From Puniceicoccaceae bacterium (GTDB lineage: Bacteria; Verrucomicrobiota; Verrucomicrobiia; Opitutales; Oceanipulchritudinaceae), in contig JBFOMH010000026.1 of NCBI GenBank assembly GCA_040830765.1, forward strand, positions 1-64,000: a stretch of DNA of 64,000 nt. Reading direction: 5' to 3'. The stretch's first letter is position 1. The number at the start of each line of letters is the position of its first letter. The translations under genes and the position numbers were made by a program. This document shows positions 1,107 through 36,163 of this stretch, one piece after another. The notes under the pieces were generated by a model, which did not search any database, was not told the origin of the DNA, and worked only from the letters and a program-made list of their open reading frames with translations.

Positions 1107-2498
1107 ATGATGCGACTTACATTCCTTGGTGCTGCCGGAACGGTTACCGGCAGCCGTCACCTCGTCGAAGTCAACGACAAGCGCCTCCTGGTCGACTGCG
1201 GTCTCTTCCAGGGACCGAAGAAGATCCGTCTCAAGAACTGGGAACCGTTCCCGGTAGAGCCTGCCAGTATTGACGCGGTCATGCTGACCCATGCCCATAT
1301 CGATCACATCGGTTTCCTGCCGGCCATCGTCAAGCATGGTTTCCGTGGCCCCATCTACTGCACCAAGGCAACAGCCGATCTGGCAGGTATTCTTCTTCCC
1401 GATACAGGCCACCTGCAGGAAGAGGAAGCCAAGTGGGCCAACAAGAAGGGCTATTCGAAGCACAAGCCGGCCAAGCCGCTCTTCACGGAGGACGATGCGA
1501 GGGATGTCCTGCAGTACTTGCAGCCGGTTGACTACGGCCAGCACTTTGAGCCGGCACCGGATATCCGGGGCAAGTTCCGCGACACCGGGCATATTCTCGG
1601 GGCAGGTTTCCTTGACTTGAAAAGCACCACCTCTTCAAGCAGGAAGATCATATTCTCGGGGGATGTGGGTCGCCCTGTGGACTCGATCCTGCGGGCGCCC
1701 GTCCCGGCCTACAATGCGGACTACCTGGTCATGGAATCCACTTACGGGGATCGTCTCCATGAAGAAACCTATCCCGTGGATGACCTGGTCCGGGTGGTTA
1801 ATGAGAGCATGGAACGGGGTGGCGTCCTGGTCATACCCTCCTTTGCAGTCGGCCGTTCTCAAACCCTGCTTTACCTCCTGCGGGAACTGGAGGAGGCGGA
1901 CCGCATTCCGCGGGTGCCGATTTACCTTGATTCCCCGATGGCGAACCATGCCCTGCAAGTGCACCGCAACCACATTTCTGATCTCAACCTGACTTGCCGC
2001 AAGCAGTCGATCGCGGGCGAGCGGATTTTCCATCCGGAAAAGTTGGTTTGCTCTGTCTCCCGTGAACAGTCGATGAAGATCAATTCCGTGCAGAAGCGGG
2101 CCATCATCATTTCGGCCAGCGGCATGGTGACCGGGGGGCGGATTCTTCATCATTTGAAGGAGCGCCTTTCCGAACCGCAGCACACAGTCCTCTTTATCGG
2201 GTACCAAGCGCAGGGCACACGTGGACGGACCATTCTCGAGGGCAAGGAGAGCGTGAAGATGTTCGGCCAGCAGGTTCCAATCAAGGCAAAGATTGAGCGT
2301 ATTGAAGGCTTTTCCGGGCATGCAGACTACAATGAGCTACTGGCCTGGATGATGGGCTTCAACAAGGCTCCCGAGCGCACATTCCTCGTCCATGGCGAAC
2401 CGGAGGCCAGCAATGCGATGGCCGAACACATTCGGCGGCACTTCAAGTGGGACGTCACCGTTCCGGTTGAGGACGACCAGGTTCTTTTGGACTTCTAG
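1107..2498 (+). CDS. MBL-fold metallo-hydrolase with beta-CASP/RNA-specificity domain
   Basis: FLGAAGTVTGS, VDCGLFQG, THAHIDH, GHILG, FSGD, MESTYG, FSGHAD and VHGE motifs. Start moved to ATG 1107. Confidence 0.9.
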   Translation: MMRLTFLGAAGTVTGSRHLVEVNDKRLLVDCGLFQGPKKIRLKNWEPFPVEPASIDAVMLTHAHIDHIGFLPAIVKHGFRGPIYCTKATADLAGILLPDTGHLQEEEAKWANKKGYSKHKPAKPLFTEDDARDVLQYLQPVDYGQHFEPAPDIRGKFRDTGHILGAGFLDLKSTTSSSRKIIFSGDVGRPVDSILRAPVPAYNADYLVMESTYGDRLHEETYPVDDLVRVVNESMERGGVLVIPSFAVGRSQTLLYLLRELEEADRIPRVPIYLDSPMANHALQVHRNHISDLNLTCRKQSIAGERIFHPEKLVCSVSREQSMKINSVQKRAIIISASGMVTGGRILHHLKERLSEPQHTVLFIGYQAQGTRGRTILEGKESVKMFGQQVPIKAKIERIEGFSGHADYNELLAWMMGFNKAPERTFLVHGEPEASNAMAEHIRRHFKWDVTVPVEDDQVLLDF

Positions 2499-2575
2499 TC
2501 CTGCCGGCTGTTTTTAACCGACATTTTACCAATTGAGGCTTGCCGGGCTACCGGTATTCCCCTTACTGCCGGTAC

Positions 2576-3586
2576 ATGACCAGATACCGATCTCTTCTCT
2601 TGTTGGTGGCGGGCTTGTTTCCGCTGTGGAGCGTTGCACAGATTGAAATTATTGTTGGCGAGTATACTCAGTTCAATAAGCAGACCGGACCGGATACCCT
2701 GGTTGGATTCGGAGATTGGTCCGGTTCCGAATTTGGCGATAACTATTCCAGTTATCTGTCCGTCGAGGGGCAGGACACGTTATCCAGCCTGACGGTCACC
2801 GGGCCATCTTATCCGACACCGACGAACATCCCGTTCGACGAGGACCTGTGGGAAATTTTTGGGACATATGGCTCAGCGGCCGAGATGACAACTGCCTTCA
2901 TGCCGGGCACCTACACAATTGCCGGTGTCGGGTCCATCTCCGATACCTGGAACGAATTGCTGGTCATGGAGCAATACAACCCGTTGACTCCCCTCAAGGT
3001 AACCAACTACGAGGCGCTGCAGTCCTTCAATCCCAGCGGGGAGGTGACGATCCAATGGGAGGAATTCACGGAGGGGCAGGGAGAAGGCCCGAACCTCGGT
3101 TTCAATGGAGTTATCAATGTCGAGATTTACGGCTACAATGAATTTGGCGGATACCAGGTCTACGATTCTGAGAACGACACGCCCGACGGCGCATTCGGAC
3201 TTCCGCCGACGCAGACCTCCATTACCCTTCCGGCTAACACCTTCAATGCCACGGACTATTACATAGTGAATATCTTCTTCGCTCGAATCGATACCTTCAG
3301 GGATGCAACAACCCTGATCGACGCCATTGTGGCGACGGTAACTGGTTACGAGATCGAAGTCGACATCTACCAGGAGGGTAACAAGCCCGTTGAGAAGACC
3401 GATTGGGCCGGCTATCCGATAGTCGACAGCCCGCCATCCAAGTATGTTGATACAAGTCCCTGGCTGGGATGGATGATCATCGATGATGCTCCCTGGGTCT
3501 ACAACCTCACACTGGACAAGTACCTTTACGTCCAGGAAGGCTGGGTCGGCCCAAGTGGCAGCTGGGTCTACATCCCGAATTTCTAA
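2576..3586 (+). CDS. Secreted acidic protein of unknown function with Trp-rich C-terminal domain (family A)
   Basis: Sec-type signal peptide (MTRYRSLLLLVAGLFPLWSVA-Q) and an acidic, beta-rich body. The C-terminal ~60 aa align with the tail of the GH16 at 14305-16044. Confidence 0.8.
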   Translation: MTRYRSLLLLVAGLFPLWSVAQIEIIVGEYTQFNKQTGPDTLVGFGDWSGSEFGDNYSSYLSVEGQDTLSSLTVTGPSYPTPTNIPFDEDLWEIFGTYGSAAEMTTAFMPGTYTIAGVGSISDTWNELLVMEQYNPLTPLKVTNYEALQSFNPSGEVTIQWEEFTEGQGEGPNLGFNGVINVEIYGYNEFGGYQVYDSENDTPDGAFGLPPTQTSITLPANTFNATDYYIVNIFFARIDTFRDATTLIDAIVATVTGYEIEVDIYQEGNKPVEKTDWAGYPIVDSPPSKYVDTSPWLGWMIIDDAPWVYNLTLDKYLYVQEGWVGPSGSWVYIPNF

Positions 3587-12582: not shown

Positions 12583-14151
12583 TTATCGAGGCAGGACGAG
12601 CGTTTGCAGGGCCTGACCGGGAATCTCAAGGGAGAATGAATCATCAGGCGTGTCGAGGGAGTAGGTAATTCTTTCCTCGGTGAGGTTGAAGACGGCAATG
12701 GCGATGGACCCATCCGGATTGCAAAAGGCGGTAGCCATAAAAGCATCATCATGGCCGGAGAGGCCTATCCGGACAGCGCCGGGGCGGATGAACTTGCTGA
12801 AATGGGCGATGGAGTAGAACAGGGGAGTGAAGTAGGCATGGTCCCTGCCTGAATCGACAAGCACAGGGGCGAGACAGAAGTTGTTGGCGTGATTGGGTCC
12901 ACCGCGGGTGTTGAGGATCATGTTCCAGTCAATCCAACCGACGAGGTTGTGATTCAGTCCGCCAATGAGGTCACGGGTGTAGCGGTAGAAGGCCCGATAG
13001 GGTGGGTGATGGGGCTTGTTTTCCTCCTTGGCCCAGAACATGCCCCAGTCGGTTGCCTCGGGACGCCAGTACCAGTCGTCCTCCAGCCAGGCACCGATAG
13101 GCTCGTCATTCCCGATTGAGTCGATGCAGCCTTCGGAATGGAGAATACGGGTGTCGGGGTATTTGGCCAGGACGGCATCGAGCATGTCTCCTCCAACATC
13201 GACTGTTGACTGGTACCAGTGGACGGCCATTCCGGCGACAAAAGTGGCTGCTTTCTCATCGCCAAGAATGGCATCCGCCCAGTCGAGCATGATATCCTCG
13301 CGATTCTGGTCATAGATCCAGACGGGAGTATTGAGGCCGGACTTGTGGAGCGCAGGACCCAAATGGTCGGCAATAAAGGTCCGCATCTGTTCGGGATTGA
13401 AATGCGTGCTTTCCCAGTTGGCGTCATTGCCCAGTGGCTCATTAATAGGCGTTAAAGCCCATATGGGCACACCTTCCCCGGCGTAGGCTTCAATGTACTT
13501 GACGATATAGCGGGCAAAAGCGTCGTAGAATTCCGGCTTCAGTTCACCGCCATTCCAGGTGCCATTGGTTTTCATCCATGGCGGTGCAGTCCATGGAGAG
13601 GCTAAAATCTTGAAATCGGCCCCGGGCATGCTCTGCGCTTCCTTAATCATTGGCAGAAGGTAGGTACGGTCCGGCTCAATGGAAAAGTGCTCCAGGCCGA
13701 CATCATTCGGAACCGGGGCAAAGGTGTAGTTGCGAAGGGAGAAGTCACAACTGGCGATGTGGGTCCGGGTCAGCGAAATATGGGCCCCCGATGGGGAAAA
13801 ATAGGCCGACATGACCTGCTTGCGGACCTTATCGGACAACTCCGACAGGACATAAGCGCTCGATTCCGTAAAGGAACCGCCAATTCCAATCAATGTCTGG
13901 AAGCTGGTAGAGGGATCCAGGACCAGCTTTCGAGACGGCTCATCGATGGATAAGTTATTGATATCCAATTTTTTAAGTCGATCGCCCTGGCGACTGGTCT
14001 GGTAGACCTGAAGAGTGTGAGGAGTATTCTGCGACTCCGGCGGTTTGACCTCATGCGAATCGCGATGGCTGTCGTCGCCATGTCCGGATGCCAGTAAGGA
14101 GAGGTTTAGAGACAGTATTGAGAGAAGGAGTTTCCGGGTTGTGATGTGCAT
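12583..14151 (-). CDS. Glycoside hydrolase family 30 (GH30_1-like; glucosylceramidase/beta-1,6-glucanase type), exported
   Basis: GIGGSFTES, RTHIASCDFS, ASPWTAPPWMK, acid/base INEP, HWY, nucleophile HSEGC, GWIDWN, GGPNH and HFSKFIRPGA. Signal peptide from ATG 14151. Confidence 0.92.
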   Translation of the reverse strand: MHITTRKLLLSILSLNLSLLASGHGDDSHRDSHEVKPPESQNTPHTLQVYQTSRQGDRLKKLDINNLSIDEPSRKLVLDPSTSFQTLIGIGGSFTESSAYVLSELSDKVRKQVMSAYFSPSGAHISLTRTHIASCDFSLRNYTFAPVPNDVGLEHFSIEPDRTYLLPMIKEAQSMPGADFKILASPWTAPPWMKTNGTWNGGELKPEFYDAFARYIVKYIEAYAGEGVPIWALTPINEPLGNDANWESTHFNPEQMRTFIADHLGPALHKSGLNTPVWIYDQNREDIMLDWADAILGDEKAATFVAGMAVHWYQSTVDVGGDMLDAVLAKYPDTRILHSEGCIDSIGNDEPIGAWLEDDWYWRPEATDWGMFWAKEENKPHHPPYRAFYRYTRDLIGGLNHNLVGWIDWNMILNTRGGPNHANNFCLAPVLVDSGRDHAYFTPLFYSIAHFSKFIRPGAVRIGLSGHDDAFMATAFCNPDGSIAIAVFNLTEERITYSLDTPDDSFSLEIPGQALQTLVLPR

Positions 14152-14304
14152 CGTTTTGCAGGCTGTATAATTAGGTGAATTAGGGAACTTCACGCAGTAT
14201 TACTTGACAAGAGCTATATTGGAGGCAAGAAAAATGCATTAATATGCAGGATGTTTTCAATGTAATCATCCTGATGACGTAAAAACCCTGAAAACTCCTG
14301 TAAA

Positions 14305-16044
14305 GTGAAGCTGAATTACCTGAAGAAGCGCTGGGGAACCGCGATTGCCCTGGTCTATGGAATGAGCATGGCTGGCCTGTTGGCGGTCGATCCGGAACTG
14401 ATCTGGTCGGACGAATTTGATCCGACGCCGGACGGGCTGCCGGATGCGAGCAAGTGGATTTACGACACCGGCGCGGGTGGCTGGGGCAACAATGAGCAGC
14501 AGTTCTACACGGAAGGGCGATTGGAGAATGCTCGCGTGGAGGGCGGCTTGCTGATTATCGAGGCGCGCCAGGAGCCCTGGCCTACGCGCAATCCGGTAGC
14601 GGACTACACATCGGCCCGGCTCTTGTCGAAGGGGCAGGGCGATTGGACGTATGGCCGTGTGGAAGTTAAGGCAAAGCTGCCTGCCGGGCGGGGAACCTGG
14701 CCAGCGATCTGGATGTTGCCAACTGGTAACGAGTACGGCATCTGGCCGAGAAGCGGAGAGATCGATATCATGGAGCATGTTGGTTATGACATGGGAAGGG
14801 TTCATGGCAGCCTGCATTCCCTGGCCAACAACTGGCTTACGGGCACTCAGCCGACGAGTTCGACGATGGTGGCGAATGTCGATACCGAATTTCATGAATA
14901 CACTATTGAGTGGAGTCCTTCCCTGATCCGGTTCCTGATCGACGACGTTGAATTCTACTCTTTCAGCAATCCTGAAACGGGGTGGGAAGCCTGGCCCTTC
15001 GACCAACCTTTCCATCTGATCTTAAACATTGCAGTCGGCGGCTGGTGGGGAGGCGCCCAGGGGATCGATGAGAGCATCTGGCCTGTGCGGATGGAAATTG
15101 ACTACATTCGCGTCTACAACCTGGGGGATACGGTCCCGCTGGACACGGATAACGACATGGACCCGAACGAGACGGATCCGGATGACGACGGTGACGGGCT
15201 GACCGACCTCGAAGAGCACGCCATCGGGACGAACATCCTCAAGGTCGATACCGACGGGGATGGATTCAGTGACTTTGACGAGGTTGAAGCAGGTACTTAT
15301 CCCTTGTTGGTTGGATCATTTCCCGGGTCCAATGCTAGTATCCTGATGGTCAATAATGACTTCGAATTTGGAGAAGAGCCTTGGATCATTCACACCAACC
15401 GGCTCAATTCGGGGGGTGGATGGATTGGTCAGTTGGGTTCCTGGGCGGGAGCTTACGGTATATTTGATTATGTCACGGATATCGGTGACGGAATGCTAAC
15501 CTTCGGAAACTACGCCAGGGGCGACGCACCGAATGCAGAGCACCTTCTTTATCAGGAATGGAAGCCGACCATTATCGACCTGCTTCCCGGCGACGTCATT
15601 CGCTTCCGTGGGGAGGCAATGGCAACATCAAGTGTTCCCAACTATCAAATGGAAGCCTTTATCCGCGTGCTCGACAATGGCTTCCAACCCATGCCTGGGA
15701 CCATAACCATCCCCATCGGACCGGAGATGACGGCCTTTGAACTGGAGACAACCCTTGGGGAGGAGACATTCAACGTCCTCCAGAGTGGCATTCTCATCAA
15801 GGGGCCGCAGGCAGAGACCGCGACCATCACCTTTACCGGACTGGAAACGACCTTGAACGAGGGAACGACCTGGGCCAACTGGCCTGAGGTCGAGGGAAAT
15901 GTCGATACCGGCGGCTGGATGGGCTGGCTCTTTGTGACCAACGATCCCTGGGTCTGGAGTTACAGTCTTAGCAGGTGGATATTCCTTCCTGAGGATTTTA
16001 TTGATGAAAGCGGTGGATGGGTCTACGTTCCCGGAGATTCTTGA
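14305..16044 (+). CDS. GH16 endo-beta-1,3-glucanase (laminarinase type) with TSP3-like Ca-binding repeats, a beta-sandwich module and a Trp-rich family A tail
   Basis: WSDEF, GWGNNEQQFYT, YTSARL, GTWPAIWML, catalytic EIDIMEHVG and PFHLILNIAVGG. DxDxDG repeats at about 15140-15300. Signal peptide. Confidence 0.93.
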   Translation: MKLNYLKKRWGTAIALVYGMSMAGLLAVDPELIWSDEFDPTPDGLPDASKWIYDTGAGGWGNNEQQFYTEGRLENARVEGGLLIIEARQEPWPTRNPVADYTSARLLSKGQGDWTYGRVEVKAKLPAGRGTWPAIWMLPTGNEYGIWPRSGEIDIMEHVGYDMGRVHGSLHSLANNWLTGTQPTSSTMVANVDTEFHEYTIEWSPSLIRFLIDDVEFYSFSNPETGWEAWPFDQPFHLILNIAVGGWWGGAQGIDESIWPVRMEIDYIRVYNLGDTVPLDTDNDMDPNETDPDDDGDGLTDLEEHAIGTNILKVDTDGDGFSDFDEVEAGTYPLLVGSFPGSNASILMVNNDFEFGEEPWIIHTNRLNSGGGWIGQLGSWAGAYGIFDYVTDIGDGMLTFGNYARGDAPNAEHLLYQEWKPTIIDLLPGDVIRFRGEAMATSSVPNYQMEAFIRVLDNGFQPMPGTITIPIGPEMTAFELETTLGEETFNVLQSGILIKGPQAETATITFTGLETTLNEGTTWANWPEVEGNVDTGGWMGWLFVTNDPWVWSYSLSRWIFLPEDFIDESGGWVYVPGDS

Positions 16045-16054
16045 GGACAATTAA

Positions 16055-17485
16055 ATGAGTAGTACCCAGCACCACCGGACGGCTCCTGAGGACCGTATCC
16101 CGATACCTCAGCGAGTAGCCTACGGTGTCGGTGCCCTTGTCAACAATCTGCTCGGGGCGGCCATTCCGATGATGGCGATTGTCCTCAATCTCGGGCTGGG
16201 AATGAATCCTGCCCTGGTCGGCCTGCTGATGGCTCTGCCCCGACTGACGGATGCCTTTACCGACCCGCTCATGGGTTACATATCCGACCATACCCAGAGC
16301 CGTTGGGGCCGTCGGCGTCCCTACATTTTCCTGGGTGCCATCACTGCCGGTATCCTCTTTGCCCTCCTTTGGCAGCTTCCGGCAGGATACAACGAGTCGT
16401 TCTACTTCTGGTACTTCCTGATCGGGTCGATCATCTTCTACCTAGCCTACACGGTCTTCGCCACGCCATGGGTTGCCTTTGGTTATGAGATGACGCCGGA
16501 CAGCAACGAGCGGACCCGGCTAATGGGAGTGACCTATTTTCTTGGCCAGGTGCCGTGGCTGCTGGCGCCTGGTTTTTACTGGTTAATGGAGTGGGAGTCC
16601 TTTGCTCCGGATTCGGTCGCAGGGGCCCGCAAGCTGGCCATTTTCATCGGGGTATTCGCCGTCTTTGCCGGAATAATTCCGGCCCTTCTTTGCAGGGAAC
16701 GAATGAAATCAGTCGCGGATGCCGAGCAATCCATGTTGACTGGACTGTCTTCCCATTTCCTTTCCTTCATGAAGGGCTTCCTGGCAACGATCCGGTTCGG
16801 CCCGTTCCTGAAACTCTGCATGGCGACCTTCCTTGTCTTCAATGGCTTCATGATGGTGTCGTCCTTTTCATCCTATGTGATGATCTTCTACGTCTACGGG
16901 GGCGATCGGGATGCTGGAGCCGGGTTGATGTTCTGGAATGGCTTCCTGATGACCAGCGCCACCATGGTGGTCATCCCCTTGGTGACGATGCTTTCGAGCC
17001 GTATTGGCAAGAAGACGACTTTCTATCTGGCAGTTGGGTTCTCGATTCTTGGCTACGCCTCGAAGTGGCTGCTCTACAGCCCGGTCCAGCCCTGGCTCAT
17101 CCTCTTGTCCACTCCGCTGATTGCCTGTGGCCTGGGGTGCCTCTTTACCCTCATGAATTCCATGGTGGCGGATGTTTGTGATCTTGATGAGCTGAAGACC
17201 GGTCATCGGCGGGAAGGCATGTTCGGATCCATTTTCTGGTGGGTGGTCAAGCTGGGCATTGCCCTGGCTTACTCCCTGGGTGGCGTCTTGCTGAACTACA
17301 CAGGATTCGATGAGCAACTACCGGTTCAATCAGACAACACCCTGCTCATGATGCGCTTGTTTGATATCATCGTTCCCATGGTGACGTCAGCACTGGCTAT
17401 CTGGATTCTTGCCAAATACCCGATTACGGAGGCGAGGGCACTGGAGATTCGTGCGCAGCTGGAAGAGCGCCGGGGCAAAGTCTAA
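16055..17485 (+). CDS. Glycoside-pentoside-hexuronide (GPH/MelB-like) MFS sugar transporter
   Basis: DAFTDPLMGYISD, SRWGRRRPYI, ERTRL and MVADVCDLDELKTGHRREGMF motifs, with about 12 TM segments. Confidence 0.92.
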   Translation: MSSTQHHRTAPEDRIPIPQRVAYGVGALVNNLLGAAIPMMAIVLNLGLGMNPALVGLLMALPRLTDAFTDPLMGYISDHTQSRWGRRRPYIFLGAITAGILFALLWQLPAGYNESFYFWYFLIGSIIFYLAYTVFATPWVAFGYEMTPDSNERTRLMGVTYFLGQVPWLLAPGFYWLMEWESFAPDSVAGARKLAIFIGVFAVFAGIIPALLCRERMKSVADAEQSMLTGLSSHFLSFMKGFLATIRFGPFLKLCMATFLVFNGFMMVSSFSSYVMIFYVYGGDRDAGAGLMFWNGFLMTSATMVVIPLVTMLSSRIGKKTTFYLAVGFSILGYASKWLLYSPVQPWLILLSTPLIACGLGCLFTLMNSMVADVCDLDELKTGHRREGMFGSIFWWVVKLGIALAYSLGGVLLNYTGFDEQLPVQSDNTLLMMRLFDIIVPMVTSALAIWILAKYPITEARALEIRAQLEERRGKV

Positions 17486-18112: not shown

Positions 18113-19348
18113 TTAGATGAAGTCAATGGGGGGATGATGCTTCCCTAAAACAGGCGTGGGATCGGTCTCAAACCACTTCTCAATGACCGTGCTGTAGACG
18201 GATCGGAAATCCGTGGAGTAGGCGAGGTCCTTGTTCTTCTTGACCTTAAGGTCGGGAGCTTCCCCAAAAAGCGATCCCTTGAGCTGGCTGCCCATGATAA
18301 ACAACGGGGCTGCTGTTCCATGGTCCGTCCCGCCGGAAACATTTTCGCTGGGACGGCGGCCAAATTCGGAGAACGTCATCGTGAGAACCTGGTCATCTAG
18401 ACCATGGGCGACAAGGTCTGCCTGGAAGGCGGCCATGGCGGAGGAGAGCTGTTCCATCAGTTGCCGGTGCCGGAAAAGCTGGTTGGCGTGGGTGTCAAAG
18501 CCGCCCAGGGAGACGAAGTAGACCCGTGTCTCCTGACCGGAGGCAATCAGGGCCGCGACATTACGGAGATTGCGGGCCAGCGGATTTGCCGGGTAGGCGG
18601 CCATTGGCTGGTAGCCCCGGAGACGCTTGAGGACGGCACTTTCCGTAACCAGTGCGTTCATCAGCGTGTGCTGGAGGAAATTGGCATTCTCGCTCATGGA
18701 AAAATCTCCCCGGGCAATGGCCTCTTTCATGCCCTCCCCGGTTGTCCGGTTGCCACGACCGGTGTCGGCGAGGCTGAAGATGTTGTGCTCCCGGTCGCTG
18801 AGGAAAACATCCGGAAGCTCATTACCGATATTCAGGCCGAGGGGATCCGGCGTCGGGATACCCGCGCAGCAATTGTCGAAAAACCGACCCATCCAGCCGG
18901 TGGTTAGATAGTCGTCGCTCCCAGAGGCTGTTTCCCAAATCTCCATGGAACGGAAATGACTCCTGTTTGGATTGGGGTAGCCAACGTTCTGCACAATGGC
19001 TAGCTTACCCTCGTGGTAGAGCTGAGCCATTTCCCCGCAGGAGGGATGGAATCCGAGCTCGTCCGTGATCGGGTGCAGTTCGCTCTTCTGTAGTCCGAGT
19101 TTCGGCCTTAGTCGATAATAGTTATCGTCCTCAAAGGGGACGAGTGTATTCAATCCATCATTACCTCCCGCCAACTGGATAAGGACAAGGATGGTCCTGT
19201 CCTTCTCTGTATCCGGGACGCTGGCCCGTACGGACTGGGTCAGGAAGGCTGGGGCAACACTGCTGAACGCAACCAGCCCAAGCCCGGATGCCGATTGCTT
19301 GAGGAATTCCCTGCGTGTAGTGGGGTAGGTGACGGTAGAATCTGGCAT
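18113..19348 (-). CDS. DUF1501 family protein with twin-arginine (Tat) signal
   Basis: TRREFLK Tat motif. QLAGGNDGLNT, VGYPNPNRSHFRS, GGFDTHANQ, FSEFGRR, GTDHG and STDFRSVY motifs. Confidence 0.9.
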   Translation of the reverse strand: MPDSTVTYPTTRREFLKQSASGLGLVAFSSVAPAFLTQSVRASVPDTEKDRTILVLIQLAGGNDGLNTLVPFEDDNYYRLRPKLGLQKSELHPITDELGFHPSCGEMAQLYHEGKLAIVQNVGYPNPNRSHFRSMEIWETASGSDDYLTTGWMGRFFDNCCAGIPTPDPLGLNIGNELPDVFLSDREHNIFSLADTGRGNRTTGEGMKEAIARGDFSMSENANFLQHTLMNALVTESAVLKRLRGYQPMAAYPANPLARNLRNVAALIASGQETRVYFVSLGGFDTHANQLFRHRQLMEQLSSAMAAFQADLVAHGLDDQVLTMTFSEFGRRPSENVSGGTDHGTAAPLFIMGSQLKGSLFGEAPDLKVKKNKDLAYSTDFRSVYSTVIEKWFETDPTPVLGKHHPPIDFI

Positions 19349-19365
19349 GATGGCTTTCCTCGTTG

Positions 19366-20832
19366 TCAGCAAAGATGGTAGGGAGGGGCGGTCAAGGTGG
19401 CCGCAAGGCAGGCCGCTGCCCAACGGTACCCGCCCTGGTTGGTCTGAAGTTCAAGAAACATAGGCAGCAATGTTTCCGGCTGCGGGGTGACATGAAAGCG
19501 GTGGGCCAGGGTTTCGGCCAAATCACCTGGCTCCATTTCGGCTAACTTCAGGAGTTGCTCCCGGATCACTGTAAACCGGGCCCGGCCCTCTTTTTCCGCC
19601 TCCGCGAGTGCCTGCTTTTCGTCTGCGTTGAGGCGGTCGGTTGGCAAGGGCCGCAGAAGGGATTCCACAAACTGCCGCCGCGCAGCCAGGGTAGCTGAGT
19701 TAATCCAGTTCCGTCCACCCACCCAGCCGCGGACATTGGGCGGATTGTAAAATGGCTGGCCCATCGTCCTGAGGATATTGTTCGTTCGCCTGGGAGACGG
19801 AAACACATCCAGATCAAGGTCCTGCAGCAGCCCGAGATAGTATTGCACGGGAGACTTGATCATATTCCCCCGGAATCCTGGTTCATAGAAAACCCGGGAA
19901 CGAAAAAAGGTCATCACGAGGTAGGGTAGGGAATATCCCGATGCCCGCCAGGCTTCGGCCAGTGGTTTCAGCATGCGGCTTCCCAGTCCGTCCTCTGTCA
20001 GGTAATAGCGCGCCAACTCGTTGGGAAGGAATTCCGCTGCCGCCGGTTGCTTGAACACCAGCTCAATGACATCGTCTAGTTCAAAGGCCCCGGTCTCCCC
20101 GAAAATCGTCTTCGGGGTGGTATCGTGCCGCTGGCGGATAAACCGCACCTCATCCATCTGGTTGACAGTCCAACCGGTCATGGCCCGGGCGGCTTCCTTG
20201 ATGTCCTGTTCCGTATAGTTGCCTTCACCAAGGCAGAACAATTCCAACAGCTCGCGGGCAAAGTTCTCATTCGGGGAGCCTTTGCGACTTTGGTTCAGGT
20301 TGAGATAACGCATCATCGCTGGCGATACCGCCAGGTCGCGGCACATCTCAGGGTAGGTTTTTCCCAGGTTTCGTCGGATCCGTTCCTGGTATTCCATCAG
20401 GGTGGGGGTTCGCCTCACCCCCGCAAAGGCCACTACCCAGACGTCCTGGAAAAACAGCACCAGCTTCTCTTGTGCCGAGTTTCCGGGTTCACGCGCAAAG
20501 GCATACCAGTCCAGACCGTACTGGGCATAGGTCTGCCGGTTTTCCCACTGCAACTCCTGCCGCATCTCCCGCTTTTCCTGCGGACTGCTCCCTTGCAACT
20601 CCTTGTAGCGCGCGCCTATGCTCGTCCGCATCTCCGTCACCTCCCCACGGTCCGTAAAGGGCTCAATCTTTCCCAATAGCTTCCCCAGACTGCCCTCAGG
20701 GCCCCATTCATAAACCTGCTTCACCAGCGCCGGATTGAGCGAAAAGCCCAGCCGTATGGCCAGGTGTCGCGCTGTCTCAACAGTCCACTCCTCCTCTGGT
20801 AACGGTTCCCAAGCAGTTTCCGGTGTTAACAT
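19366..20832 (-). CDS. DUF1800 family protein
   Basis: ARHLAIRLGF, PAMMRYLN, PNENFARELLELFCLG, YTEQDIKEAARAMTGW, IKSP and MGQPFYNPPNVRGW motifs. Canonical partner of DUF1501. Confidence 0.9.
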   Translation of the reverse strand: MLTPETAWEPLPEEEWTVETARHLAIRLGFSLNPALVKQVYEWGPEGSLGKLLGKIEPFTDRGEVTEMRTSIGARYKELQGSSPQEKREMRQELQWENRQTYAQYGLDWYAFAREPGNSAQEKLVLFFQDVWVVAFAGVRRTPTLMEYQERIRRNLGKTYPEMCRDLAVSPAMMRYLNLNQSRKGSPNENFARELLELFCLGEGNYTEQDIKEAARAMTGWTVNQMDEVRFIRQRHDTTPKTIFGETGAFELDDVIELVFKQPAAAEFLPNELARYYLTEDGLGSRMLKPLAEAWRASGYSLPYLVMTFFRSRVFYEPGFRGNMIKSPVQYYLGLLQDLDLDVFPSPRRTNNILRTMGQPFYNPPNVRGWVGGRNWINSATLAARRQFVESLLRPLPTDRLNADEKQALAEAEKEGRARFTVIREQLLKLAEMEPGDLAETLAHRFHVTPQPETLLPMFLELQTNQGGYRWAAACLAATLTAPPYHLC

Positions 20833-20904
20833 GTGTTTCCCTACTGGAAAATGACTTATCAATTCCTCTCTCTCCTGTAAAGTCCGCGGCACCCTCCTTC
20901 TTAA

Positions 20905-34075: not shown

Positions 34076-36163
34076 TCAATTGCCTAAATAGCGCCACCCC
34101 GGAGCACTGTCCCAGACATATGCCCAAAGTCCCTCCCCGGACTCGAGCCAGTACATCCAATTATTCTCCGTCATGTCGAAGGCATAGACACCTCCACCGA
34201 CCAGGAAGGGAGGGAAGTACAGCCAACCGGTCCCATAGAGGTACCCCATTGGAAACGCCTCCAGATTGAGATATCCCATCCAGGAGCTGGCAGTTCCCTC
34301 AAAAAGATCTGCCTTTGGGAAAAGGTAACGGAAGTAACCGTTATCTCCTTCAAAGATGTGACTGAAACCAAACGGAAACAGCGGGTCATAACTTTCATCG
34401 CCCACATTGACCGGAACCCCGTCATTGCGGGGCCATGAATGGGAAAGGGTCCCCGTCGGGATGACGTCACCGAAGAGGACATCCGTCACGCCCTGTCCTT
34501 CCGTTCCCGGAAGCCAGGCCGCAACTGTGGCATCCCAGCTGGAAAGTTCGCTTTCAATATACAGCGGCCGGCCTGATATCAGGACGACAATGACTGGTAC
34601 GCCAGATGCCTTGATCCGGTCCGCGACCTGGGAATCGCTGCGAGACAAGTACAGGTTGCTGGTATCGCCAAAGCCTTCGGCGTAAGGTAATTCCCCAACG
34701 ACAACAATTCCCACATCCGCCCCGGCAGCTCCGGTACCATCGATGGAGTAGGTGACGGTCGTTTCGGGCGATACGGCAGCTTCGATGGCTTCAAGGATAG
34801 AGGTGCCGATCGTGGTCTCTCCGGATGAGCCCTGCCAGGAAATGGTCCATCCACCGCATTGATTGCCAATGTCATCGGCGTTGCTTCCCGCCACATGGAT
34901 GCGAGCCAGATCCTTTGACAATGGGAGTAAGGCTGAGTCGTCCTTCAGAACCACCAATGACTCGGCAACGGCCTGACGTGCCACTTGACGGTGTTCCGGG
35001 CTGCCGACCATGGGCAGCAGTTCACGCCGGGCAAGCGGTTCTTCAAACAGACCCGACTCAAATTTAATCCGGAGGATTCGGCGGACGGCATCATCAATGC
35101 GGGAAAGCGGGACCTGGCCGCCGTCAACAGCGCTTCGCAGCGTGCTGATGAAGTTCTTGTAGTCATAAGGCACCATGACCATGTCAATTCCGGCATTGAT
35201 GGCAGTGGCAACTGCGGTGAAGTAATCCCGGTCCACCTGGTCGACACCTGCCCAGTCAGAGAGGAGAAGACCGTCGAATCCCAGTTCTTCCTTGAGGACA
35301 TCCGTCAGGAGATACTGGTCACCGTGCACCTTGAGCCCATTCCAGCTGGAATAGGAAACCATGATGGTTCGTGCCCCGGCCTCAATGGCATCGATGTAGG
35401 GGGCAATGTGGATGTCCCTCAATCCTTGTTCATCAATAACCGTGTCGCCCTGGTCGGTGCCGTTGGTTGTTCCCCCGTCGCCGGCAAAGTGCTTGATGCA
35501 GGCGAGAATGCTGCTGGATGCAGTCAAATCGGTCCCCTGGAATCCGTTCATGGCCGCCACACCCATCTGTGAGACAAGCGGCGTATATTCGCTGAAACTT
35601 TCGTAGGTCCGGCCCCACCATTCATTGCGGGCGACCGAAACAGCCGGGGCGAACGTCCAGTGCACCCCTGTTGCCGCAACCTCCTTGGCGGTCACCTCGG
35701 CAGCGCGCTGCATCAGCGCGGGATTACCGGTAGCTCCCATACCGATATTGTGAGGAAAGATAGTTGCTCCATAAACATTGCTATGTCCGTGTACGGCATC
35801 CACTCCATAAAGGATAGGAATGCCTAAACGTGTTGATAAAGAGATATTTATGTATCCATCAACCATATCCGCCCATGCTTCAGGATTGTTGGTCGCCGGA
35901 GCCTCACCCCCACCACTGAGAAGGGAACCCAGAAAATATGTGCTGATGTCCGAGTGGGGGATCACCGAACCAATATTGGCCTGGGTCATTTGCCCGATCT
36001 TCTCATCCAAGGTCATGCGTGAGAGGAGGTCTTCAACCCTATCATCAACCCCTGCCTCCGGATCCAGGTAGAGTGGCTCCTGCGAATAGAGCGGTGACGA
36101 CAGGGCCACGATGGCGAAGGAGAGGAAAATCAGCAAGCGGCACATATTAGGTTTCAGGGTCAT
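34076..36163 (-). CDS. GH3 beta-glucosidase/exo-1,3-beta-glucanase with Trp/Tyr-rich C-terminal tail
   Basis: MTLDEKIGQMTQ, YGVDAVHGH, WGRTYES, KHFAGDG, nucleophile LSDW, GIDMVM, VGELPYAEG and AWLPGTEG. About 90-aa aromatic tail after YDPLFPFGF. Confidence 0.93.
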   Translation of the reverse strand: MTLKPNMCRLLIFLSFAIVALSSPLYSQEPLYLDPEAGVDDRVEDLLSRMTLDEKIGQMTQANIGSVIPHSDISTYFLGSLLSGGGEAPATNNPEAWADMVDGYINISLSTRLGIPILYGVDAVHGHSNVYGATIFPHNIGMGATGNPALMQRAAEVTAKEVAATGVHWTFAPAVSVARNEWWGRTYESFSEYTPLVSQMGVAAMNGFQGTDLTASSSILACIKHFAGDGGTTNGTDQGDTVIDEQGLRDIHIAPYIDAIEAGARTIMVSYSSWNGLKVHGDQYLLTDVLKEELGFDGLLLSDWAGVDQVDRDYFTAVATAINAGIDMVMVPYDYKNFISTLRSAVDGGQVPLSRIDDAVRRILRIKFESGLFEEPLARRELLPMVGSPEHRQVARQAVAESLVVLKDDSALLPLSKDLARIHVAGSNADDIGNQCGGWTISWQGSSGETTIGTSILEAIEAAVSPETTVTYSIDGTGAAGADVGIVVVGELPYAEGFGDTSNLYLSRSDSQVADRIKASGVPVIVVLISGRPLYIESELSSWDATVAAWLPGTEGQGVTDVLFGDVIPTGTLSHSWPRNDGVPVNVGDESYDPLFPFGFSHIFEGDNGYFRYLFPKADLFEGTASSWMGYLNLEAFPMGYLYGTGWLYFPPFLVGGGVYAFDMTENNWMYWLESGEGLWAYVWDSAPGWRYLGN

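Follow-up and report, generated by a model that had tools for sequence, protein, structure and literature searches.

A tryptophan-rich tail domain on exported proteins of Puniceicoccaceae, a candidate envelope-retention module

Introduction

Marine Verrucomicrobiota play a major part in breaking down recalcitrant polysaccharides from algae. The stretch of DNA analyzed here (hereafter the window: 64,000 nucleotides, positions 1-64000 of contig C26, GenBank JBFOMH010000026.1) comes from the 3.99-Mb assembly of a Puniceicoccaceae bacterium (GCA_040830765.1), which comprises 40 contigs. It encodes two exported proteins, one of them a GH16 (glycoside hydrolase family 16) enzyme, that end in a similar Trp-rich segment of about 60 residues. 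What is this shared tail, how far does it extend beyond the two proteins, and what may it do for the proteins that carry it? A sequence-only reading of the window had proposed a modular signal for export or cell-surface attachment.

We found that the tail belongs to a large family of domains, which we refer to as family A, carried by many exported proteins of this genome and confined to Puniceicoccaceae among the genomes sampled. With moderate confidence, we read it as a module that retains its carriers non-covalently in the cell envelope, rather than as a strictly C-terminal export signal.

Family A in the genome: copies, sequence and position

The translations of the two tails in the sequence-only reading were exact, and its count of about 21 identities, gapless from VDT onward, held in a BLASTP comparison (21 identities over 58 columns, E=2e-14, with one 4-residue gap placed before VDT). 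The similarity of the two tails is far beyond chance. Both lie at the extreme C-terminus, the domain envelopes stopping one residue (carrier 1) and two residues (GH16 carrier) before the stop codon, and the N-termini of both carriers are signal-peptide-like, again as first described. The tail regions of both proteins are left uncovered by any Pfam or NCBIfam family.

A hidden Markov model (HMM) was started from the two tails and refined in successive rounds, until it converged, on the open reading frames (ORFs) of a six-frame translation of the genome (54,337 ORFs of at least 40 aa). It detected 62 copies of the domain, spread over 55 ORFs, and the lowest domain E-values reached 1e-23. The search for paralogues proposed in the sequence-only reading thus returned many. 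The copies align as one clear family with a unit of 57 residues and the consensus W-a-G-Y-p...v-D-T-g-x-w-L-G-W-l-n-V...P-W-v-Y-S-y-s-L-x-x-W-i-Y-x-p-E......G-a-W-v-Y-i. The Trp of the G-x-W-x-Y motif near the end is invariant, and the D-T, L-G-W and W-x-Y positions are near-invariant. Aromatic residues make up 22% of the domain and Trp alone 9.7%. All 62 copies are acidic (mean net charge -4.8, range -9 to -1).

In 45 of the 55 ORFs no more than 3 residues separate the last copy from the stop codon. Six others have 35-42 extra residues behind the domain, which match its second half weakly (a half-repeat ending in ...GWVYL). Two pectate lyases (L029 and L046) carry the domain only at the N-terminus, directly after the signal peptide, and two further ORFs (L030 and L038) carry it only as internal tandem pairs. 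Two copies are found in 7/55 ORFs, with Pro/Gly-rich linkers of about 10 residues. A strictly C-terminal position, one of the properties that the sequence-only reading had put up for testing, is therefore not what we observe: four carriers have the domain only at the N-terminus or internally, seven have two copies, and six have a half-repeat behind it. From this pattern of positions, a binding or retention module fits better than a C-terminal export signal.

One ORF of 68 aa (L012, G000:C5:68301-68507) consists of the family A tail alone and has no signal peptide. Its region also holds several tail-bearing genes, and it is probably a gene remnant.

Carrier proteins

A signal peptide was detected by a crude hydrophobicity test in 50 of the 55 carriers. 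Among the five that failed, three look signal-peptide-like by eye and fall just under the threshold; the remaining two are the 68-aa tail-only ORF and one ORF apparently truncated at its N-terminus. A loose lipobox pattern occurs in 3/55 carriers, each time within the hydrophobic core ahead of an AxA-type site; since these rare matches all fall inside the hydrophobic core, we do not regard the carriers as lipoproteins.

Pfam gives names to 28 of the 55 carriers. They include glycoside hydrolases (three GH16, one of them with a CBM6, a GH10, a GH95 and two GH88), lyase-type enzymes (two pectate lyases, a chondroitinase-B-like and a heparinase-II/III-like protein), sulfatase-type proteins (a sulfatase and two FGE-sulfatases), and others (GDSL lipase, GSDH, BNR_4, and proteins containing CBM9 and CBM96). 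Among the carriers that are not carbohydrate-active enzymes (CAZymes) are two CAP proteins, two BspA-type LRR (LRR_5) proteins, a cadherin and an RCC1 protein; DUF4465 and DUF4185 are also found, the latter below the cut-off. A multihaem c-type cytochrome (L027, G000:C17:118049-119677; Cytochrome_cB plus an MtrC/MtrF-like domain) has a C-terminal family A tail, and is a candidate envelope-tethered component. The claim that the tail is a module mounted on unrelated proteins with signal peptides is thus borne out well beyond the two proteins on which it was made.

Alternation with PEP-CTERM and other tails

With the tails masked, the passengers were compared with every ORF of the genome. Two adjacent paralogues (L080) are 57% identical over 215 aa, with homology extending up to ...SPFPR[LI]DNV; beyond this point a family A tail follows in one gene, and VPEP, then a hydrophobic helix and finally RRRK in the other. 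At a second locus (L081), three A-tailed paralogues and one with PEP-CTERM are 59-64% identical over about 258 aa and split after GYKGTAV; database orthologues of this passenger end in one A domain, two A domains, PEP-CTERM, a B-like tail (see family B below) or nothing. Pairs of the same kind occur in other genera, at L089 (58% identity over 197 aa) and L101 (35% over 289 aa). At the level of sequence, family A and PEP-CTERM tails thus alternate on close paralogues in four passenger families. A fifth potential family (YEGFDY...DELRVG, L081 4427-5287 against L037) was too weakly similar (E=0.02) to be counted.

The genome has about 22 PEP-CTERM tails (regular-expression search) and three exosortase genes (PF09721, above cut-off). 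As both are present together, the A tail coexists with the PEP-CTERM system and does not replace it. According to PMC4960237, PEP-CTERM is regarded as a signal for sorting and cell-surface localisation. The proposal of an export or surface-attachment signal can therefore be kept in part: a role in localisation fits the exchange with PEP-CTERM, while the N-terminal, internal and tandem copies speak against a strictly C-terminal export signal.

Genes adjacent to TonB-dependent receptors

When the genes next to A-tail genes were clustered, large outer-membrane receptors emerged. A search of the genome for the Plug domain gave 26 matches (TonB-dependent receptors). For seven of these receptor genes an A-tail gene lies no more than 250 bp away, in most cases in the same orientation, with gaps of 17-194 bp. 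Random placement of 55 genes gave a mean of 1.7 receptors, and seven were reached in 4 of 5000 permutations. For three other receptors, a gene with a B-type tail lies at most 100 bp away.

Among 20 loci around family A matches in six other genera, a receptor stands directly beside the A-tail gene in ten, distributed over five genera. Two arrangements are kept in synteny across genera. In the first, an A-tailed beta-sandwich protein of about 340 aa stands beside a receptor of about 1250 aa; the second groups an A-tailed GH16 enzyme, a small GH16-like protein whose tail is of type A or B, and a receptor. In the ESM Atlas the 340-aa passenger resembles polysaccharide-lyase or sialidase-CBM-like sandwiches (TM 0.79 and 0.63), which we take as a lead only. 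The second arrangement occurs here as an operon-like trio (Table 1), whose small GH16-like protein is B-tailed in this genome and A-tailed in two other genera. The locus on contig C34 listed in Table 1 also holds another PEP-CTERM protein.

As reported in PMC7157763, surface GH16 enzymes and glycan-binding proteins work together with the transporter in the beta(1,3)-glucan loci of Bacteroides. The receptor/GH16 layout seen here parallels those loci.

Taxonomic range

Searched against 1.84 billion proteins, a profile built from 58 copies (alignment A1) matched 1051 cluster representatives at E<=1e-3, of which 614 reached E<=1e-10. Among 168 database proteins, the domain lies within 5 residues of the end in 149, is followed by an extension of 6-50 residues in 7, and is N-terminal in 2 and internal in 10; two-copy proteins are over-represented in this list, because it was ranked by total score. 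The matches with names belong to Puniceicoccaceae or to metagenome-assembled genomes (MAGs) of Oceanipulchritudo, and a search for related loci with a smaller alignment (A3) gave six loci, all from Puniceicoccaceae, Opitutales or Oceanipulchritudo MAGs. Neighbours in the ESM Atlas are all Verrucomicrobiota. They add trypsin, 5'-nucleotidase and cadherin to the list of carriers, with no Pfam family over the aligned part.

When 41 related genomes were examined, family A was present in 22 of 24 Puniceicoccaceae genomes (3 to 80 matches each), whereas the 16 genomes that represent other families of the order all lacked it. A phylum-wide sample of 401 genomes (E<=1e-5) showed it in all five genomes of the family to which the window belongs and in 0/395 outside it; these figures describe genome samples, and distant relatives may escape the first-look filter. 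Family A is thus restricted to Puniceicoccaceae in the genomes sampled.

Predicted fold and comparison with known families

The AlphaFold2 model of the carrier 1 copy, obtained with 58 paralogous copies aligned, is an all-beta fold of five strands with high confidence (pLDDT 95.1, pTM 0.79). W-x-Y motifs lie on three consecutive predicted strands (P-W-v-Y-S, W-i-Y and a-W-v-Y-i), and from this pattern, these residues would line a single face of the sheet as an aromatic ladder. The structural comparison suggested by the sequence-only reading gave this confident fold and no convincing match in the PDB: the best row had E 2.2 with Foldseek against the PDB and Z 3.6 with VIA-align against 48,161 chains (PipX, OCRE-type, with SH3/Tudor-like rows), and a profile search of the PDB by sequence reached E 0.11 at best.

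By sequence, too, the tail falls outside the families with which it might be compared. None of the 58 copies matches the Pfam choline-binding repeat PF01473, although the choline-binding domains of LytA and LytB are the weak top rows of the Foldseek search (E 2.5-4.4, TM about 0.23). None matches a Pfam family of carbohydrate-binding modules (CBMs) at E<=10. The dockerin family PF00404 has no Pfam match in these copies either, and the all-beta model lacks the Ca-binding helix-loop repeats of dockerins. The C-terminal domain (CTD) of the type IX secretion system (T9SS; PF18962/TIGR04183) matches 0/58 copies at E<=10 in Pfam and E<=1 in NCBIfam. Searches of the genome with the T9SS SprA_N and CTD models also found no match, and the control genomes gave none either. 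The tails are acidic and end in ...GxWvYi plus 0-3 residues, unlike PEP-CTERM (TIGR02595). The sequence-only reading had set the tail apart from PEP-CTERM, LPXTG and the T9SS CTD, and the unmatched 58 copies and the acidic, folded tail agree with that.

DUF7183 (PF23811) was considered and rejected. Nine of the 58 copies match it weakly (best E 0.015, under the 27-bit gathering cut-off) over profile positions of about 88-127 of 146, and a search of the genome at E<=0.01 gave no match, and the control gave none either. Beyond noise and this weak similarity nothing was found in Pfam, NCBIfam or the PDB, so the tail is, as stated at first, without a named family. Keyword searches of the literature found no description of family A; since keywords serve poorly to find a domain that has no name, this is weak evidence that it is unpublished; the available parts of PMC8857213 and PMC13274419 hold nothing on tails or anchors.

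Family B and the GH3 tail

Weak matches led to a second aromatic module, family B, of about 100 residues (consensus GW..S.W.GW....PW..H.EHGW.Y...S..YD..L..W.WT...YP..Y....W.YY..G....RWF). It forms the C-terminus of about 31-38 other ORFs of the genome, whose products are exported, and is N-terminal in four (examples in Table 1). No Pfam family covers it. Its model, which is confident (pLDDT 91.3), has no PDB match better than E 0.64 with Foldseek or Z 3.6 with VIA-align; rows for LptC, LptF and LptD (Z 2.5-3.5) were not significant and were set aside. Its range is slightly wider than that of family A (12 of the 401 phylum genomes). The two families are linked by a common hairpin motif (hhalign, 89.7% probability, E=1.8e-6, 26 columns), and they replace each other on RCC1 proteins (44-48% identical), GH88 (45%) and LRR proteins (32%). 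The small GH16-like protein mentioned above behaves in the same way: its tail is B-type here, and its orthologues in two other genera are A-tailed.

The window also encodes a GH3 enzyme with an aromatic C-terminal tail (Table 1), which the sequence-only reading had grouped with the two family A tails. This grouping does not stand. The GH3 tail scores an independent E-value (iE) of 4.6 against the family A HMM, and in hhalign it lies closer to B (80%, E=1.3e-5, 64 columns) than to A (51%, 27 columns); we therefore do not count it in family A. The rest of the genome holds no close paralogue of this tail.

The two carriers in the window

The likely start of carrier 1 is Met13 of its ORF, the residue at which database copies (336 aa) begin, which gives a protein of 336 aa instead of the 348 aa of the whole ORF. 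No family was found for it in Pfam or NCBIfam. Carrier 2 consists, in order, of a signal peptide, a GH16 domain (Glyco_hydro_16, Pfam E=2e-24, residues 89-268, about nt 14569-15108), TSP3-type repeats (TSP3_bac, Pfam, residues 315-331, about nt 15247-15297), an unassigned middle part and the family A tail. It lies in a compact beta-glucan locus. Further along the window, DUF1501 and DUF1800 genes adjoin each other (18116-20892, minus strand), a pairing that is common in PVC (Planctomycetes, Verrucomicrobia and Chlamydiae) bacteria.

Contigs assembled from RNA libraries (runs X2 and X6) span both tail-coding regions with 0 mismatches, and around carrier 1 they cover 2000-3561, also with 0 mismatches. 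The depth of the RNA libraries over the tail regions is uneven, and that of the DNA run is flat there. This is a weak hint that both tail regions are transcribed, weak because RNA libraries can contain DNA.

Table 1. Coordinates of the tails, their carriers and the loci discussed (positions without a contig name refer to the window)
Feature	Position	Strand	Remarks
Family A tail, carrier 1	3401..3583 (domain 3401-3580; stop codon 3584-3586)	+	HMM iE 3e-20
Carrier gene 1, exported protein	ORF 2540..3586	+	likely start nt 2576; signal peptide end about nt 2641
Family A tail, GH16 carrier	15868..16041 (domain 15868-16035; stop codon 16042-16044)	+	HMM iE 3.9e-21
Carrier gene 2, GH16 enzyme	14305..16044	+	Pfam domains
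Beta-glucan locus, compact	12586-17482		GH30 12586-14193 (-), tailed GH16 (+), MFS sugar transporter 16055-17482 (+)
GH3 aromatic C-terminal tail, about 95 aa	34079..34363	-	diverged, B-like (hhalign)
GH3 enzyme gene	34079-36163	-	GH3 domains by Pfam
Family B examples	G000:C5:113430-113729, C20:75333-75638, C26:66816-67124		loci L054-L073
Operon-like trio: GH16+CBM6+A tail, small GH16-like protein, TonB-dependent receptor	G000:C17:370015-375934		also at loci L088, L094
Siderophore-receptor-like TonB-dependent receptor beside four unknown secreted paralogues (three A, one PEP-CTERM)	C34:11000-22100		L081, L102

Discussion

Proposed envelope retention

We consider a retention module the most economical explanation for family A, because the domain is folded, tolerant of position, often duplicated, carried by exported proteins that are not lipoproteins, and confined to one lineage. 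The same reading is favoured because the tail is exchangeable with a surface-sorting signal and is enriched beside outer-membrane importers. Carriers would cross the inner membrane by Sec, a step seen in the signal peptides alone, and would then reach the envelope surface by an outer-membrane route that we leave unspecified; three secretin genes are encoded in the genome. The tail would hold them there by binding a repetitive, lineage-specific component of the envelope, for which an outer-membrane or capsular glycan is the most plausible candidate. For such a ligand, the narrow range of family A is what one would expect. Endo-acting glycanases and lyases, glycan-binding and adhesin-like proteins, and the multihaem cytochrome would in this way be kept near the cell and its TonB-dependent transporters. 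Our observations cover the family itself, its carriers and its place in them, its taxonomic range, its exchange with PEP-CTERM and B-type tails and its adjacency to receptor genes. That the tail binds at all, which ligand it has and whether it works inside or outside the outer membrane, we infer.

Several points weigh against retention at the surface. We identified no ligand or binding partner, and retention itself is deduced from sequence. All copies are acidic, so that binding to anionic lipopolysaccharide (LPS) or sulfated glycans would need cation bridges. The carriers include GH88, sulfatase and FGE-like proteins, and possibly the cytochrome, enzyme types that are periplasmic in other bacteria, and the module could accordingly act in the periplasm. 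Receptor adjacency is limited to 7-8 of the 55 A-tail genes, and the 20 loci from other genera are not independent, because they were chosen from the top of match lists and several are mutual orthologues. The exchange with PEP-CTERM could mean that one paralogue is anchored and the other released or targeted to a substrate, which would favour a carbohydrate-binding module. Finally, independence of position could also be compatible with type II secretion recognising a folded domain.

Comparison with known surface systems

The nearest functional analogues appear to be the choline-binding repeats and the SLH and CWB2 modules, aromatic beta-hairpin modules that occur singly or in tandem at either end of exported enzymes; choline-binding and SLH modules follow the envelope polymers of their lineages. 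Family A differs from the choline-binding repeats in that its unit of 57 aa is present once or twice and not in arrays of repeats of about 20 aa, its host is diderm, and sequence and fold give no significant match.

PEP-CTERM likewise ends diverse Sec-exported proteins of Verrucomicrobiota, in the same slot on homologous passengers. Family A, in contrast, has no PEP motif, hydrophobic helix or basic end; it is a folded, acidic beta-domain that can be tandem, N-terminal or internal, and it implies no processing enzyme.

The CTD of the T9SS of Bacteroidota is a small folded beta-domain at the C-terminus of dozens of unrelated exported proteins, among them many CAZymes; it is confined to one lineage and strongly expanded there. 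Family A is similarly C-terminal on many unrelated exported proteins, lineage-confined and expanded, but it is shorter (57 aa, five strands), not strictly terminal and without a sequence match.

The gene context, lastly, is the one seen around the surface lipoproteins of Bacteroidota polysaccharide utilization loci (SusD, surface glycan-binding proteins and surface GH16). The difference is that family A carriers have no lipobox and that no SusD homologue was noted; here, what the presumed surface components share is a tail of type A or B.

Alternative explanations

The alternative that survives best, though we regard it as unlikely, is a carbohydrate-binding module: the tail would bind a structural polymer of the external habitat, for instance chitin or a glycan on the surface of algae or hosts, and so draw the enzymes to a composite substrate, much as cellulose-binding modules occur on non-cellulases in plant-cell-wall degraders. 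The aromatic and Trp content of the domain, its W-x-Y motifs on three consecutive predicted strands, the predominance of CAZymes among the identified carriers, the tandem copies and the independence of position all suit such a module. However, none of the 58 copies matches any Pfam CBM, and no solved CBM fold was matched, which is weak evidence for so small a domain. Substrate-binding modules usually spread between unrelated degraders, whereas family A is confined to one bacterial family. The tail also takes the same slot as PEP-CTERM on paralogues, is present on LRR, cadherin, CAP and RCC1 proteins, and is found on small receptor-adjacent proteins that have no other visible anchor.

Rather improbable, in our judgement, is a secretion or sorting signal, that is, a folded tail recognised by type II secretion or by an undescribed machine of this lineage, and perhaps cleaved like the T9SS CTD. 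It would account for the 45 of 55 ORFs that end within 3 residues of the stop and the 149 of 168 database proteins within 5 residues, for a diverse cargo with signal peptides, for the lineage-restricted and strongly expanded family, and for the swaps with PEP-CTERM, itself a sorting signal; the three encoded secretins are also in line with it. Terminal signals, however, are not usually found N-terminal (2 ORFs), internal (2) or in tandem (7), nor in such positions in 12 of 168 database proteins. Ahead of the domain no conserved cleavage motif was seen by eye, no dedicated machinery, whether translocon or protease, was identified, without proteome-wide profiling for one, and a new translocon limited to a single family would be a large assumption.

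Only a slim chance is left for dockerin-like docking, in which the tail would plug its carrier onto a scaffold or the extracellular face of a receptor in multi-enzyme uptake complexes: A-tail genes do adjoin receptor genes, often apparently in one operon, and the carriers are distributed as those of dockerins, which are mostly C-terminal and found on many CAZymes and non-CAZymes, but paralogues at the same receptor locus carry PEP-CTERM in place of the tail, so that the slot looks like that of a generic anchor, a receptor neighbours only 7-8 of 55 carriers, no recurrent cohesin-like partner was noticed, and the domain is all-beta, without Ca-binding EF-hand repeats.

A possible surface tether for glycan capture

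If family A is a module for envelope retention, a further step may tentatively be considered, namely that in Puniceicoccaceae the A-type and B-type tails supply the missing tether at the outer surface for a Sus-like apparatus that captures glycans. Endo-enzymes and glycan-binding proteins that are not lipidated would then sit beside TonB-dependent transporters by means of a small aromatic beta-module, which would grip a lineage-specific glycan of the envelope. This would be a further route by which diderm bacteria form uptake complexes at the surface, besides surface lipoproteins, attachment through T9SS and LPS, and PEP-CTERM.

To our knowledge, how marine Verrucomicrobiota retain enzymes and binding proteins at their surface is not known, and they are without the lipoprotein- and T9SS-based solutions of Bacteroidota. 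A module specific to one family could be the solution of one lineage to surface retention. It marks about 55 exported proteins in this genome and gives up to 80 matches in a relative, and family A would thus provide a simple sequence tag to predict which enzymes act outside the cell.

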